From Patescibacteria group bacterium (GTDB taxonomy: Bacteria > Patescibacteriota > Patescibacteriia > JAQUQO01), in the NCBI GenBank assembly GCA_028716045.1, contig JAQUQO010000001.1, positions 256,942 through 320,941 of the forward strand: 64,000 nt of DNA, read 5' to 3'. Position numbers and translations under genes: made by a program. Position 1 is the first letter of the stretch; every line of letters starts with the position of its first letter. This document shows, one piece after another, positions 57,851-63,043 of this stretch. The notes beneath the pieces were generated by a model. That model made no database searches, was not told the origin of the DNA, and saw only the letters and a list, made by a program, of their open reading frames with translations.

Positions 57851-59287
57851 TTAAATTTTTTCTTTTATCATCATTCTAGCTTTGCGGGTTTTAATTGATT
57901 TCAACCAGGCGGGGTCGGGTTTTTTTCGGCTTCTTTCTATGATTATTTCCACCTTGTCTCCGGACAATAATTTATAATCGTCAGACACTAATTCATCATT
58001 TACTTTAGCCCGCGCGTATTTATGCCCCAATTCAGTGTGTATGGCATAGGCAAAATCCACGGGCGTGGCGTTTTCTGGCAGATTAATAATGTCGCCCTTT
58101 GGCGTAAAAACAAAAATTCTTTTTTGAAAGATGTCGGTTTTTAAGGAATCTATATTTTCAAAGAATTTTGTTTTTTCTTTAATCTCCTTTTGAATTTTAG
58201 AAAATTCCCTTAGCCAGGCAATGTGTTTTTTCTTATTTTCCTGACCCTCCCCCTGCTCTCTATAAAACCAATGCGAAGCCAGACCATATTCATCTTCTTC
58301 GTGCATTGTTTTGGTGCGGATTTGAAACTCAACCGTTTTTCCGTCTTCGCAAAAAACCGTGGTATGAAGAGATTGATAGCCATTCGGCTTGGGTTGAGAA
58401 ATATAATCTTTAATCCTTCCTTTTACCGGTTTCCAGCGATGGTGTAGTATACCGAGAGCTGAATAACAGTCACTTTCCGATTCCACGATGATACGCGAAG
58501 CAAAGATGTCGTAGATATTATTAGGATTCCAATTTCTGGCGGCTAACTTTTTATAAACCCCGTAAAGACCTTTTTTGCGGCTGTGAATTTCTGCCACTCT
58601 GATGCCGCCCTTGACCAAATCTTTGCTAACTATTTTTCTTATTTTCTCCAGATAACCTTCTTTGGTCGCGTAAACATTTTTTACCAAGTTCAATGTTTTT
58701 TCGTAATCCTCGGGATAAACATACTTAAACGATAAATCTTCCAATTGCTGGCGAATTACATCCATCCCGAGACGATTGGCAATCGGGGCATAAATTTCCA
58801 GACTTTCTATCGCCAGGCGTTTTTGTTTATTTTCCGGCAGAAAGCTTAGTGATTTTAAGTTGTCAATTCTATCAGCAAATTTAATAAAAATAATCCGCAC
58901 GTCATCCGCTACGGAAATAAACATCTGGCGCAAGTTTTCCGCGTATTTTTTTTCTCCGCGATACCTCAAACTGTCCAGCTTCATCTCCCCCTCAACCATC
59001 TTGGCTACATCTCGGCTAAAATTTGTTTCTATGTCAGCGATAGTGTATTTAGTGTATTCCGGGACATCATGAAGTAGCCCAGCGACGACAAAATTAATAG
59101 GCAATTTCCATTCGGCAAGATGAAGAGCGGTATTTACGGAATGGTTTATTTGGGGTTCTCCGGAAAAGCGTTTATTATCTTGATGGGCCATTTCCGCAAA
59201 ATTGTAGGCCCTTTCCACTAACTCAACATTTACCTTGGGATAATTTTGAGATAACAGTTGTCTAATTTTTTCAATATTTTTAAACAT
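57851..59287 (-). CDS. rel: bifunctional (p)ppGpp synthetase/hydrolase, short Rel/SpoT form (HD + synthetase + TGS)
   Basis: HD hydrolase motifs (HDVPE); synthetase motifs SRKKGLYGVYKK, DIFASR, GYQSLHT and EFQIRTKTMHE; TGS domain VFTPKGD. Confidence 0.85.
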   Translation of the reverse strand: MFKNIEKIRQLLSQNYPKVNVELVERAYNFAEMAHQDNKRFSGEPQINHSVNTALHLAEWKLPINFVVAGLLHDVPEYTKYTIADIETNFSRDVAKMVEGEMKLDSLRYRGEKKYAENLRQMFISVADDVRIIFIKFADRIDNLKSLSFLPENKQKRLAIESLEIYAPIANRLGMDVIRQQLEDLSFKYVYPEDYEKTLNLVKNVYATKEGYLEKIRKIVSKDLVKGGIRVAEIHSRKKGLYGVYKKLAARNWNPNNIYDIFASRIIVESESDCYSALGILHHRWKPVKGRIKDYISQPKPNGYQSLHTTVFCEDGKTVEFQIRTKTMHEEDEYGLASHWFYREQGEGQENKKKHIAWLREFSKIQKEIKEKTKFFENIDSLKTDIFQKRIFVFTPKGDIINLPENATPVDFAYAIHTELGHKYARAKVNDELVSDDYKLLSGDKVEIIIERSRKKPDPAWLKSIKTRKARMMIKEKI

Positions 59288-59292
59288 GTATG

Positions 59293-59344
59293 TAAAATAA
59301 AAAACGTCCTTTTAGTAAAAGTTTATAACTTTTACTAAAAGGAC
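59293..59344 (-). terminator. perfect 18-bp-arm hairpin (GTCCTTTTAGTAAAAGTT-TAT-AACTTTTACTAAAAGGAC) followed on the - strand by GTTTTTTATTTT
   Basis: The hairpin (59306-59344) includes the stop codon of the upstream gene. The U-tract ends 5 nt before the rel ATG. Confidence 0.6.
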
Positions 59345-60639
59345 GCAAGTTCGGCAGATGAAGGGGGCGCGGGTTTAAATTTCTTGTTTCTCTCCTCAAA
59401 TCGTTGCTTGATGTAACTGAATATTTGTTCTTGCACCTTTTTTTTATTCCAGTTTATACCAAACAATTCTTTGGGAAAAAGCTGGGAGAAGAGACCATTT
59501 TTAGCAGCATACCACCGCGCATGATAGAGAGTGTGATTTTCCGGGGCAATAGAATTGCAAATGTTGTAGAGATGTTCTACGGGCAGATGTTGAATCTCGC
59601 GGTATTTACCGTCAATAAAGGCAAATTGGCTTTCAATTATCAAATTTTTAGCAGAAAACTTGTTTAAGCTGGGGACGTTTTTAACTCCTTCGGTAATTTC
59701 CCATAGTTTTTTTTGGACAAATTCCTCACCTCTTTTCATATCTTCCAGGGAAAAGTAAGCAAGGCGTATGCCGTAACGATCTGGGAGAAATTCGGGGTTT
59801 AGTTCTTTGTTTCGCAACATCCTGCCTATAGTTGACATATAACCTTTTTTTCTGCTGGCCAACAATGCCTTAACCTTTTTCTCAGATGAATCATCTATGT
59901 TTAGGGTGACTATCTCAACGTCTTCTGCTTCGTAGCACATATTTGCTGGGATATTCTTGCCATTTAGAAAATCTTCAGAAGAAATCATGGAAACGCATTT
60001 CCATTGATTTAGCGGGTCATAGAAAATAAACCACTTCTCTTTTTTGATATTAGAAAAAATCCCCTTACTCACTAAATAAGTTTTAATAGCTTCTTCCTGC
60101 TCTTCATCTTGTTTTTGCCATTCTCGAAGCGGTGTTTTCCAGTCCTTGTATTTAGCGCCTATAAGGAAGTATTTTCTGACTAATTCTATGGTCCGTAAAA
60201 TTTCAAATTCTTCCCTTGAAAATATTTCCTTATTCTCATTGGCAAGTTCTATTTCTTTCCACTGCTTAAAGAGTTCCAGCATTCCAATAATAACCGTTGA
60301 CCCCAGAAGCGGTTTTAGAGAATCTTGTATAGAGGGTGGTAGATATTCAGTCATCAATTCAGAAACGTCTTTTTTAACCTTACTTAGCACATACCCTATA
60401 CCCAGAATAAATTCGTTTAGTTCGGCTGTTTCGCCTGACGAAGAAATACCTTCCCTTAAAATGTCAGCTAGTCGTTGATTGGGGGCGGTTCCCGTATCCA
60501 CACTCCCGTCGCTTTTTTTGCCGGTAGAAATATAATCTTTATTTCTACGCCATTTTTCCAGTTTTTGAACAAAAATATTGTCTTTTTTGAGATTCTGCAG
60601 CGCTTTGGCACTGCAGAATGCTTTCTTCTGCTGTGCCAT
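59335..60639 (-). CDS. divergent RelA/SpoT-homologue (RSH) synthetase-domain protein with an N-terminal region of about 250 aa of unknown function
   Basis: The C-terminal half carries SRKKGYMSTIGRMLRNK (GR.K...SI..KM.RK block), PDRYGIRLAYFSLED (D..G.R..YF..DD block) and REIQHL (ExQ). The typical GYRSLH loop is lacking. Confidence 0.6.
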   Translation of the reverse strand: MAQQKKAFCSAKALQNLKKDNIFVQKLEKWRRNKDYISTGKKSDGSVDTGTAPNQRLADILREGISSSGETAELNEFILGIGYVLSKVKKDVSELMTEYLPPSIQDSLKPLLGSTVIIGMLELFKQWKEIELANENKEIFSREEFEILRTIELVRKYFLIGAKYKDWKTPLREWQKQDEEQEEAIKTYLVSKGIFSNIKKEKWFIFYDPLNQWKCVSMISSEDFLNGKNIPANMCYEAEDVEIVTLNIDDSSEKKVKALLASRKKGYMSTIGRMLRNKELNPEFLPDRYGIRLAYFSLEDMKRGEEFVQKKLWEITEGVKNVPSLNKFSAKNLIIESQFAFIDGKYREIQHLPVEHLYNICNSIAPENHTLYHARWYAAKNGLFSQLFPKELFGINWNKKKVQEQIFSYIKQRFEERNKKFKPAPPSSAELASF

Positions 60640-60804
60640 GTTTTTACTCCTTAAGTTGTTAAAGACCTTTATATTAAACCCTTTTGGGTATATTGTATAT
60701 TAAATAAATACTACCGTTTTGTCAAGAAGTTTATTTATTTTTTTAGCCTTGCGATATTAACGTTTTTTTTATATAATAAAAAGGCAATTAATAAAATCAA
60801 AATT

Positions 60805-62253
60805 ATGGCTAAGGCAACAAAAAATATATTTATAATTACGGTGATTTTTAGCATGTTCTTCCTGCCCTTATCCCCTATTCTTGCCGTTACCTTTAACCCC
60901 GATTATATTTTATCCGATTATGAGTTTACTGACAAAGATGCTTATAGCGGGCCGCAGGCGATTGAGTTTTTCATCAAATCCAAAGGCGGAGCAGTGGCTG
61001 ATTACAAAATGCTTGTTGATGGCCAGTTAAAAACCACCTCGGAGTTGATTTATGAGTCCGCGCAGGTAAATAACATTAGTCCTAAATTTTTATTAACTTT
61101 ACTTCAGAAAGAATCAGGTTTAGTCACCGCTTCTACATTCACGAGTGATGATTTAGATTGGGCCATGGGAGCGGGCATTTGTGATAGTTGCTCCAAAGAC
61201 GACCCGGAAATTATTTTAAAATATAAAGGTTTTGATAAACAGATACGTTGGGCGGCGGAGCTTAATCGTTGGTATTTAGATGAAATCGCTAAAAACGGAA
61301 AAACTTTTACCGGTTGGGGTCCGGGGGTGACTAAAAAAACTTTAGATGGGATAAAGGTTGTCCCTGCCAATTCCGCCACCGCCGCTCTTTATACCTATAA
61401 CCCTTGGGTTGGAAAGTATGGCGGCGGGACTTCAAAATATGGAGCCAATTCCCTTCTCTGGAAAAGATGGACCGAATGGTTTACTAAATTTTATCCCGAC
61501 GGCTCATTACTAAAAGATAAAGAGGAAGCCGGAGTTTGGCTGATACAAAATGGCTTAAGGCGGCCTTTTTTCTCAAAGTCCGCCCTGCTTTCTCGCTATA
61601 GTTTAGAGAAAGTGATTGAAGTCGCCAAAAATGATTTACTAAAATACGAAATCGGCAAACCAATAAAATTTTCTAATTATTCTCTTTTGCGTTCTCCCCG
61701 CGGAACGGTTTATTTGTTGGTTGACGATATTTTACGCGGCATTGCCTCGCGCGAGGCGTTTAGGGCAATCGGTTTTAACTCCGAAGAAATTATTGACGTA
61801 GAACAGGAAGAATTGGCGCAATACATCGAAGGTGCGCCCATAACCGCAGAAAGCGTCTACCCCACAGGGGCTTTATTACAAAATAAAAAAACCGGAGGAG
61901 TTTATTATGTGGAAAACGGGGTTAAGCATCCTATTTGGGCCAAAGAAATTTTAAAAAGTAATTTTAAAAACAAAAAAATTGTCGCCGTCTCGGCTGAAGA
62001 GTTAGGAAAATACCCCGATAGCGAACCTCTGAAATTTAAAGAAGGAGAGCTAGTGAAATCCGCCGTTTCCCCGTCGGTTTATGTTATTTCTAATGGTTTG
62101 AAACGTCCCATTCCTTCAGCTGAAATTTTTGAAGGGCTTGGGTATAAATGGGGGCAGGTAATAATTACGAATGAGAAAGCCTTGGAAGCGCATTCTTTTG
62201 GCGAACCAGTACGTTTGACTTCCGGAGAAGTTGAAATAGCCATTAATAAATAA
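60805..62253 (+). CDS. secreted protein with four C-terminal repeats of about 45 aa and a possible lysozyme/transglycosylase-like N-terminal region (hypothetical)
   Basis: A signal peptide is present. The repeats are V(Y/W)(L/Y)(L/V/I)..G(L/V)(K/R).P. Promoter TTGCGA-17-TATAAT lies upstream. Confidence 0.5.
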   Translation: MAKATKNIFIITVIFSMFFLPLSPILAVTFNPDYILSDYEFTDKDAYSGPQAIEFFIKSKGGAVADYKMLVDGQLKTTSELIYESAQVNNISPKFLLTLLQKESGLVTASTFTSDDLDWAMGAGICDSCSKDDPEIILKYKGFDKQIRWAAELNRWYLDEIAKNGKTFTGWGPGVTKKTLDGIKVVPANSATAALYTYNPWVGKYGGGTSKYGANSLLWKRWTEWFTKFYPDGSLLKDKEEAGVWLIQNGLRRPFFSKSALLSRYSLEKVIEVAKNDLLKYEIGKPIKFSNYSLLRSPRGTVYLLVDDILRGIASREAFRAIGFNSEEIIDVEQEELAQYIEGAPITAESVYPTGALLQNKKTGGVYYVENGVKHPIWAKEILKSNFKNKKIVAVSAEELGKYPDSEPLKFKEGELVKSAVSPSVYVISNGLKRPIPSAEIFEGLGYKWGQVIITNEKALEAHSFGEPVRLTSGEVEIAINK

Positions 62254-62257
62254 CCCT

Positions 62258-63043
62258 ATGTTGGTATTTGCCGCTTTTACTCCCCATACTCCCCTTTTGA
62301 TTCCTAATATCGGCAAGGAGAATTTAGCTCATTTAGGAAAGACAATTAAGGCGATGGAGAGTTTGAATAAAGAATTGATTGAGGCCAAGCCAGAAACGAT
62401 TATTGTTTTTTCCGGACACCATTCGTTTCTTTCGGACCATTTTATAATTAATTTAAACACTAAGTATCGCGGAGATTTTCAAGAATTCAGTGATTTGACC
62501 ACAGCAGTTTGCTTTAATGGTGACGTTGTTTTAATTAATGAAGTAAGGGATAAAATCGAAGACGAGGTTCCCTTGGTGCTTAAAACAGAAAATAATTTGG
62601 AATACGGGACTATTGCCCCGCTTTTTTATCTAACAAAAAATTTACCCGGGATAAAAGTAGTTCCATTTTCTTATTCCTTAGCCGACAAAGAAACGCATTT
62701 CAAGCTGGGGAAATTATTAAAAGAGGTTATTTGGGAAAGTGAAAAACGCATTGCGGTGATAGCGGCGGGCGATTTATCTCATACTTTGACCAAGAATTCG
62801 CCGGGCAGTTATTCTAAAAAAGGCTCTCTCTATGACCAGTTACTTATAGATTTTTTGAAAAGCAAAGACATAAAAGGGCTTTTAGATATTGATAACGAAA
62901 TTATTGAAGAAGCGAAAGAATGTTCCTTTCGTTCATTATTAATGCTTCTCGGGATTATTCACGAGATGAACTATGAAGTTAATATTATTTCTTACGAACA
63001 TCCGTTTGGCGTAGGATATTTAACGGTAAAATTTAAAATCTAA
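62258..63043 (+). CDS. LigB/DODA-family (class III extradiol dioxygenase-like) protein
   Basis: N-terminal AAFTPHTPLL and VFSGHHS, which are candidate metal-ligand His. Size is about 260 aa. Confidence 0.45.
   Translation: MLVFAAFTPHTPLLIPNIGKENLAHLGKTIKAMESLNKELIEAKPETIIVFSGHHSFLSDHFIINLNTKYRGDFQEFSDLTTAVCFNGDVVLINEVRDKIEDEVPLVLKTENNLEYGTIAPLFYLTKNLPGIKVVPFSYSLADKETHFKLGKLLKEVIWESEKRIAVIAAGDLSHTLTKNSPGSYSKKGSLYDQLLIDFLKSKDIKGLLDIDNEIIEEAKECSFRSLLMLLGIIHEMNYEVNIISYEHPFGVGYLTVKFKI

Follow-up and report, generated by a model that had tools for sequence, protein, structure and literature searches.

A highly divergent homolog of the RelA/SpoT synthetase domain encoded directly before rel in Patescibacteria

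RelA/SpoT homologs (RSH) are central stress-signalling enzymes of bacteria, and divergent branches of this superfamily have revealed (pp)pApp synthesis and tRNA 3'-pyrophosphorylation. The closest described relatives of the gene analysed here are the long RSH enzymes, the housekeeping small alarmone synthetases (SAS) and the toxic SAS (toxSAS). The gene, designated X, is located directly before rel in a 64,000-nt stretch of contig JAQUQO010000001.1 from a Patescibacteria group bacterium, and this whole stretch is referred to as the window. The C-terminal half of the X protein was shown to be a highly divergent, genuine homolog of the RSH synthetase domain. A preliminary description made from the sequence alone had placed a 434-aa ORF (open reading frame) at 59335–60639, directly before rel, and this was confirmed, with X on the minus strand and rel 47 nt further on. 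The database entry identical to X is the NCBI 'hypothetical protein PHD51_01430' from a Patescibacteria metagenome-assembled genome (MAG). The two genes are as follows.

59335–60639, minus strand: X coding sequence (434 aa plus stop, ATG start), from the ORF list; exact match to P0001, with the N-terminus and length kept in homologs
57851–59287, minus strand: rel, encoding a compact long RSH of 478 aa (HD_4 + RelA_SpoT + TGS), by Pfam and TIGR00691

The synthetase (SYNTH) domains of the long RSHs (Rel, RelA and SpoT; PF04607; structures 8acu of B. subtilis Rel, 5xnx of M. tuberculosis Rel and 1vj7 of RelSeq) gave the best sequence-profile and fold matches to X. The order of motifs was the same, namely R-x-K...K/R, D-x-x-G-x-R, the N-x-aromatic loop, E-x-Q and H-x-x-Y; the Asp and Glu of catalysis were retained, and the ~400 aa of X were numbered roughly colinearly with the N-terminal half of Rel. 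Unlike the long RSHs, X has no detectable HD hydrolase, TGS or other C-terminal domain, and neither the conserved G-Y-x-S-x-H G-loop nor the Arg-Thr of E-x-Q-x-R-T. The identity is about 12–18%. Additions in X are three long beta strands and, at the C-terminal side, a conserved F-P...W segment.

RelQ (SAS1) and RelP (SAS2), represented by structures 5ded, 5dec, 6ewz and 6fgk, resemble X in being chromosomal proteins with a synthetase domain, without a hydrolase of their own, beside a bifunctional Rel. X differs from both in having double the length, an N-terminal extension of 250 aa and another G-loop, and its sequence-profile match to SAS (RelP, E=0.066) was weaker than that to the long RSHs. 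RelQ and RelP, unlike X, are not known to be strictly linked to rel. The toxSAS FaRel, FaRel2, PhRel2 and CapRel, together with Tas1 (PMC7229694, 10.1101/2021.04.30.441581), are similar to X in their divergent synthetase domain and, as predicted for X, in non-canonical acceptor recognition. X also adjoins a hydrolase-domain gene that could undo its product, and its catalytic domain is basic. Unlike the toxSAS, X is found in conserved housekeeping synteny and not in a mobile bicistronic module, its partner is a full Rel, a hairpin separates the two genes, no PADLOC model was matched, and nothing related to the N-terminal domain occurs in the known toxSAS architectures. CapRel was a weak fold match of X (E about 0.1).

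As a single sequence, X matched one Pfam family, RelA_SpoT (PF04607), over residues 262–319 with 12.4 bits (E=0.2; cut-off 27 bits), and no match was obtained in NCBIfam, PADLOC or the sequences of the PDB. A word-indexed search of 5.8 billion clusters with X returned two homologs at 38–40% identity. An exhaustive HMMER search with the resulting three-sequence profile (E<=1e-3) gave 74 representatives of clusters at 50% identity, and this set is taken as the X family throughout. Its mean column identity is 15%. Nearly all members are 370–460 aa in length, and the common core is formed by the C-terminal ~160 residues. A word-indexed protein search with the 74-sequence profile recovered five proteins.

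At the family level, RelA_SpoT was matched by 19/74 members at E<1 (best 5.1e-7), and no other Pfam family was matched by more than one member. One of the 74, P0038, exceeded the RelA_SpoT cut-off (30.4 vs 27 bits, profile positions 2–99 of 113) and was tied to X through the family profile with E=3.4e-10. When the 74-sequence profile was compared with all PDB sequences, the seven best matches were all RSH enzymes, including B. subtilis Rel (2.6e-5), M. tuberculosis Rel (1.3e-4), mycobacterial RelA (1e-3), E. coli RelA (0.014) and RelP (0.066). A RelQ-like protein was also among the matches, below the Rel proteins. The three-sequence profile yielded chance matches only, such as the IL-10 (interleukin-10) receptor. 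Based on profile–profile comparison with hhalign, the full-length X family aligned with 40 Patescibacteria Rel sequences over 119 columns covering the whole synthetase core (E=4.6e-5), and the C-terminal half of X aligned with the Rel synthetase domain with 91.6% probability (E=8.2e-7). As a control within the window, the C-terminal profile was compared with every ORF of 60 aa or more (281 in total); it matched X itself and the adjacent Rel (E=5.8e-6), and nothing else.

The divergent RelA/SpoT-family synthetase domain that the preliminary description had proposed for the C-terminal half was thus upheld by the transitive Pfam match, the profile search of the PDB, profile–profile alignment, the fold search and residue conservation. 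The lack of a significant match to an RSH hidden Markov model (HMM) had been named there as grounds for refutation. By this measure X as a single sequence fails (E=0.2) and the X family passes, so the refutation is overturned at the family level alone.

Whether X is a recent tandem copy of the neighbouring rel was also considered, and this was ruled out. The C-terminal profile scored 20–24 bits against Patescibacteria Rel and 26 bits against B. subtilis Rel; being no better on the former than on the latter, it indicates that the split between X and Rel is ancient.

The motifs of the synthetase domain were located in X by alignment with the Rel sequences as follows.

59806–59853, minus strand: R263-K-K265-GYMS-TIG-R273-ML-R276-NK, equivalent of the RSH R-x-K...K/R ATP-phosphate-binding strand and helix, aligned to Rel R237/K239
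59755–59781, minus strand: D287-RYG-I-R292-LAY, equivalent of RSH D-x-x-G-x-R (catalytic, Mg-binding Asp), aligned to Rel D260/R265
59650–59664, minus strand: N326-K-F328-S-A, G-loop remnant, aligned by hhalign to Rel N302-G-Y304-Q-S306
59581–59598, minus strand: E348-I-Q350-H-L-P, equivalent of RSH E-x-Q-x-R-T (catalytic Glu), aligned to Rel E320/Q322
59512–59541, minus strand: E367-N-H369-T-L-Y372-H-A-R375-W, equivalent of the RSH H-x-x-Y helix after the catalytic strand, aligned to Rel H339/Y342

Within the family, K265, D287 and Y372 were present in 74/74 members, G/A290 in 73/74, R263 in 72/74, E348 in 71/74, K/R273 in 70/74, N326 in 68/74 and Q350 in 67/74. Conservation was lower for N368 (61/74), H369 and R375 (58/74 each) and R/K292 (55/74). 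In RSH synthetases, the positions conserved here are the ATP-phosphate-binding and the Mg-binding or catalytic residues. Such preservation of the catalytic machinery by selection argues for an active enzyme. The three motif blocks pointed out in the preliminary description were those paired with RSH motifs by hhalign, and the catalytic Asp and Glu were both present.

The guanine-binding loop had been described as unrecognisable. The GYRSLH signature is indeed missing, and the canonical G-Y-x-S-x-H was not found in the X family, but the loop has not wholly lost its identity, as N326-K-F328-S-A aligns to Rel N302-G-Y304-Q-S306. The family counterpart reads N-x-[H/F/Y]-[S/A]-[S/A], with Asn in 68/74 members, His, Phe or Tyr at the Tyr position in 62/74, and Ser or Ala one position further on in 68/74. 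Where E-x-Q-x-R-T has Arg-Thr, the family has Pro or hydrophobic residues that vary, and X reads EIQHLP. The missing G-loop weakens a designation of X as a (p)ppGpp synthetase and leaves the homology claim unaffected. The C-terminal domain was also found to be basic, with a family median isoelectric point (pI) of 9.4 vs 8.5 for the Rel synthetase domain and a net charge of +12 for X itself, which is a weak indicator. FaRel2, a toxSAS, uses the corresponding Tyr to hold the tRNA 3' adenosine, and its RNA is guided by a basic patch (preprint 10.1101/2021.04.30.441581).

The structure of X was predicted with AlphaFold2 (AF2). Based on the 74-sequence alignment, the model reached a pLDDT (predicted local distance difference test score) of 91.7 and a pTM (predicted template modelling score) of 0.91, compared with a pLDDT of 42.5 for three sequences. 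Three regions were distinguished.

60067–60639, minus strand: N-terminal domain, all-helical, residues 1–191, by AF2 secondary structure
59890–60066, minus strand: three long beta strands (195–208, 214–220 and 235–247), residues 192–250, by AF2 with a pLDDT of about 90–98
59440–59889, minus strand: divergent RSH SYNTH-like nucleotidyltransferase core, residues 251–400, by hhalign, profile vs PDB, Foldseek and the sub-threshold PF04607 match

In the model, the core runs from a strand (R263, K265) through a helix, a strand (D287–R292), a helix and a loop (N326) to two strands (E348, Q350) and the final helices (H369, Y372). This order of elements is that of RSH synthetase domains, and the nucleotidyltransferase core, the lack of which the preliminary description had named as grounds for refutation, was present in the predicted fold. 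A Foldseek search of the PDB with the model returned RSH enzymes for all of the top ~41 matches, with probabilities of 0.9–1.0. Against SAS, the probability was 0.9–0.99 over about 174 columns, with template modelling (TM) scores of 0.35–0.43 normalised to the SAS. In a viral library, entries named RelA/SpoT or Tas1 were at ranks 3, 4, 6 and 10.

The N-terminal 250 residues gave no family in Pfam, NCBIfam or the PDB. Their lack of an obvious family had already been remarked on, and Pfam, NCBIfam, PDB, hhalign and HMM searches all agreed. Conserved residues of the N-terminal domain in the closer subgroup are N21, F23, W30, D91, P101, F145 and R149. In HMMER alignments with PDB sequences the numbering of X was colinear with the N-terminal half of Rel, and the Foldseek alignments with long RSHs extended over ~400 columns with TM-scores of about 0.25–0.33, which is no greater than expected from the synthetase domain alone. 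Descent of the N-terminal half from a decayed HD domain was not supported, as the probability from hhalign of residues 1–250 with the HD domain of Rel was 0.1% and HMM searches found nothing in either direction; a structural relic of an HD domain might still be hidden in this half. Pfam detected neither HD_4/HD nor TGS in X, so the protein does not have the long-RSH architecture. The size of a SAS (a single SYNTH domain of about 200–260 aa) is also exceeded, as X has 434 aa with a confidently modelled extra N-terminal part, and the length is kept across the family (370–460 aa).

The gene following X had been described as a compact Rel with an intact HD hydrolase, and both Pfam and the motif alignment agreed. 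In an alignment of 40 Rel sequences, the hydrolase and synthetase residues H49, H73-D74, R237, K239, D260, Y304, H308, E320 and Q322 were invariant. The compact HD-SYN-TGS form (476–536 aa) was found in 120 of 120 best matches and is the normal Rel of Patescibacteria, and it is thus not peculiar to the X locus. Patescibacteria Rel ends after TGS, without the usual ribosome-sensing C-terminal domains. A second compact Rel, P0157 (478 aa; HD_4 + RelA_SpoT + TGS), is 53% identical to the Rel of the window and is not encoded in the 64-kb window according to tblastn. It is recorded on a contig of 927,681 bp, a length equal to that of the contig with X and rel. The genome bearing X therefore probably has two Rel paralogs in addition to X.

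Gene order was compared between the window and the other contigs carrying X homologs, which are given L numbers. X was followed by rel in 9/9 contigs with downstream sequence (the window, L001, L002, L005, L008, L011, L012, L014 and L015). In the window, ClpB is convergent beyond rel, and on the opposite side a 482-aa protein and then a LigB/Memo-type gene are divergent. The two close homologs have the same neighbourhood, with LigB/Memo and a ~485-aa gene divergent, and X then rel. In L008, L011 and L012, where X is 24–28% identical, an opposite-strand PP2C is upstream, followed by L31, X, rel, RF1, PMT_2 and PrmC in the same direction. A GTDB scan revealed the same L31-X-rel-RF1-PMT_2-PrmC block in L014, a Candidatus Magasanikbacteria MAG, and in L015. 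Besides L31, RF1 and PrmC, the genes flanking the pair include EF-Ts, S2 and ClpB. In L005, an HD_4 domain opens the gene following X. The contig of L015 (CAYOXC010000001.1) is labelled 'uncultured Gammaproteobacteria bacterium' and has, together with the L31-X-rel-RF1-PMT_2-PrmC layout, EF-Ts, S2 and PP2C of the Patescibacteria type; the label is probably wrong.

A remote subgroup (P0075 and P0058; 18–20% identity) had no adjacent rel. Its members were found as NDK-X-NUDIX in L003 (5296–8161) and as NDK-X in L006, and in the loci of this subgroup (L003, L004 and L006) L32, NusB and RNase III are divergent. Considering the rel and NUDIX contexts together, X occurs twice beside an enzyme able to cleave nucleotide pyrophosphates. 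The NUDIX protein of L003 itself gave generic Nudix-box matches only (YtkD, MutT and NAD diphosphatase).

X matched none of the PADLOC defence models. The adjacent Rel matched the PADLOC candidate-system model PDC-S33 with E=1.9e-15 over the synthetase region, which most likely reflects the common RSH domain and no defence role.

Signals for expression were found on both sides of X.

59293–59346, minus strand: terminator- or attenuator-like hairpin with a perfect 20-bp stem and a 3-nt loop (59346–59304), then TTTTTTATTTT, from the terminator scan
60647–60652, minus strand: AAGGAG Shine-Dalgarno sequence, 8 nt 5' of the X ATG, read from the sequence
60697–60725, minus strand: TTGACA-17-TAATAT promoter-like site 5' of X, from a consensus scan (10/12 matches); a pattern match only

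The 5' arm of the hairpin contains the X stop codon, and the hairpin ends 17 nt before the rel ATG. With a folding energy (dG) of -26.5 kcal/mol and z=-6.6, it ranked first in strength among the terminator-like sites of the window's final 20 kb. When each locus was folded, a GC-clamped hairpin and T-run directly before rel were also seen in L001, L002, L008, L011, L012, L013, L014 and L015. Promoter-like hexamers were present in the hairpin loops, TTAAAA-N17-TATAAT in L011 and L014 and TTGAAA-N17-TGATATGCT in L008 and L012. It is possible, judging from these sequence patterns, that a promoter is nested in the terminator, or that an attenuator sets the X:Rel ratio. No Rfam riboswitch or other known RNA was matched around X and rel. 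X and rel do not form a simple bicistron with tight coupling.

Taken as a whole, the data are best explained by X being an active, Rel-linked pyrophosphokinase with an altered acceptor site, vertically inherited and with an alarmone-type product, a reading that on balance appears somewhat favoured. X would transfer the beta,gamma-pyrophosphate of ATP to the 3'-OH of an acceptor containing a purine nucleoside. This acceptor may be other than GDP/GTP, because the guanine-recognition loop is rebuilt, though an aromatic residue or His stays at the position of the base-stacking Tyr. The product would probably be a hydrolysable alarmone-type nucleotide, removed by the hydrolase encoded alongside, that is, by the HD domain of Rel here and, in the distant NDK-X-NUDIX subgroup, by the NUDIX enzyme. 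A regulatory or sensor role may fall to the N-terminal domain. X is pictured as a chromosomal partner of Rel in reduced genomes, passed on by vertical descent, and presumably not as a mobile toxin. The X:Rel ratio would probably be set by partial termination or a separate start of rel, because X has its own promoter-like site, a Shine-Dalgarno sequence and the terminator-like hairpin.

Several observations weigh against this interpretation. As a single sequence, X is below the Pfam RelA_SpoT threshold. The Foldseek TM-scores of the predicted structure were low (at most 0.43 normalised to SAS targets, with a root-mean-square deviation of 7–10 A), which suggests that the core is strongly remodelled. 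X has lost both the canonical G-loop and the Arg-Thr ending of E-x-Q-x-R-T. The basic catalytic domain is, by analogy, a property that goes with a tRNA acceptor in toxSAS (10.1101/2021.04.30.441581), although this is a weak point. Between related genomes, X is 38–44% identical, compared with 60–75% for Rel and 72–82% for the two genes on the other side, and this quick divergence could mean relaxed constraint or conflict-driven evolution. The X family is rare and is therefore no general requirement of Patescibacteria Rel. Finally, the activity, product and acceptor of X are predictions from the sequence and the model.

Among the alternatives, a toxin–antitoxin or defence pair of the toxSAS type would have X arrest growth via (pp)pApp or tRNA CCA pyrophosphorylation, with the HD domain of Rel or the NUDIX enzyme as antidote. 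The preliminary description had left the choice between such a system and a housekeeping two-enzyme module; the synteny, the hairpin, the absence of PADLOC matches and the ordinary Rel favour the module and disfavour the toxSAS-like system, which is considered very unlikely. Its appeal comes from the stand-alone divergent synthetase before a hydrolase gene in two contexts, rel and NUDIX, from the rapid evolution of X relative to its neighbours, from the presence of CapRel and Tas1 among the weaker fold matches, and from the basic SYN-like domain, a basic patch being the mark of tRNA-targeting toxSAS (10.1101/2021.04.30.441581). The pair is, however, part of the conserved housekeeping block L31-X-rel-RF1-PrmC, with orthologs down to 24% identity, and the keeping of this block at such divergence indicates vertical inheritance and not a mobile module. 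In place of a small dedicated antitoxin, the partner is the standard full-length Rel of the lineage. A strong terminator-like hairpin between 'toxin' and 'antidote' would under-express the antidote, no PADLOC model was matched, and known toxSAS have nothing like the N-terminal extension of 250 aa. In both sequence and fold, X matched long RSHs and housekeeping SAS best, with CapRel at rank 37. A dedicated partner and a patchy or mobile context, as expected of a toxSAS, were therefore not found, and it is the two-gene adjacency itself that is conserved (9/9).

X could also be a non-catalytic regulator, a pseudo-enzyme that acts on the compact Rel (itself without the C-terminal ribosome-sensing domains of other long RSHs) by binding nucleotides or Rel. 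The strict adjacency to rel (9/9), the absence of a canonical G-loop and of the final Arg-Thr of E-x-Q-x-R-T, the fast divergence of X and the ending of Patescibacteria Rel after TGS would all suit such a regulator. Yet the catalytic and ATP-binding positions are near-invariant despite a mean column identity of 15%, as purifying selection on catalysis predicts, and a protein that only binds would have no need of Asp287, Glu348 and Gln350 together. As the invariant residues are precisely the catalytic ones, and with a distant subgroup having no adjacent rel, a non-catalytic role is judged to be quite unlikely. A non-toxic pyrophosphokinase whose acceptor is a macromolecule or otherwise not of the alarmone kind (for instance the 3' end of an RNA, a substrate associated with the ribosome or some other small molecule), with a merely syntenic or regulatory link to rel, is unlikely as well, if a little easier to entertain. 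It would account for the rebuilt acceptor loop, the basic catalytic domain and the translation-gene neighbours L31 and RF1/PrmC, and in the model the substrate could be bound on a platform made up of the N-terminal domain and the beta extension. No RNA-binding domain was recognised in X by Pfam or NCBIfam, though, and the repeated pairing with nucleotide pyrophosphohydrolases and NDK suggests small-nucleotide chemistry. The aromatic residue retained at the base-stacking position fits a nucleotide or a nucleoside 3'-OH acceptor alike and does not discriminate.

Beyond the Rel-linked pyrophosphokinase with an altered acceptor site, a more far-reaching version may be put forward tentatively and with some doubt. 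Here, X would found a Patescibacteria-specific branch of RSH pyrophosphokinases that, by means of the rebuilt loop, use an acceptor other than GDP/GTP, for example adenine nucleotides or a different 3'-OH acceptor. The branch would provide a second, non-(p)ppGpp signal in normal physiology, which the new N-terminal domain would sense and the adjacent Rel HD domain or a NUDIX hydrolase would erase. If so, ultra-small symbiotic bacteria would have a two-synthetase nucleotide signalling circuit of a new type.

Every member of the X family with a source name is annotated 'hypothetical protein'. A literature search returned no description of this RSH-type architecture and no study of alarmone enzymes in Patescibacteria, or CPR (Candidate Phyla Radiation). 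CPR lineages go unmentioned in the main text of the paper that classified the toxSAS. The X family is a small, unannotated Patescibacteria enzyme family of about 74 clusters inside the well-known RSH superfamily. Its interest is that of a branch missed by standard annotation, in which the catalytic machinery is kept, the acceptor loop is changed, a new domain is added and a tie to rel exists in genome-reduced Patescibacteria. Growth control in these bacteria is almost undescribed. If X is active, it would offer a testable handle on how Patescibacteria signal starvation or host contact, and a new acceptor specificity may emerge; if it is merely a second (p)ppGpp synthetase, about 74 sequence clusters would still gain a useful annotation.

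Some further features of the window were recorded. The 482-aa protein upstream of X (60805–62253, plus strand) has an N-terminal segment resembling a signal peptide or transmembrane helix and is without a Pfam or NCBIfam family. It is 73–82% identical across three related genomes, much above X, and the LigB/Memo-type gene (62258–63043) is always next to it. No tRNA genes, and no Rfam family at the gathering threshold, were found in the whole 64-kb window. The GC skew is positive to about 44 kb and near zero or negative at 46–54 kb, where the dominant coding strand changes.

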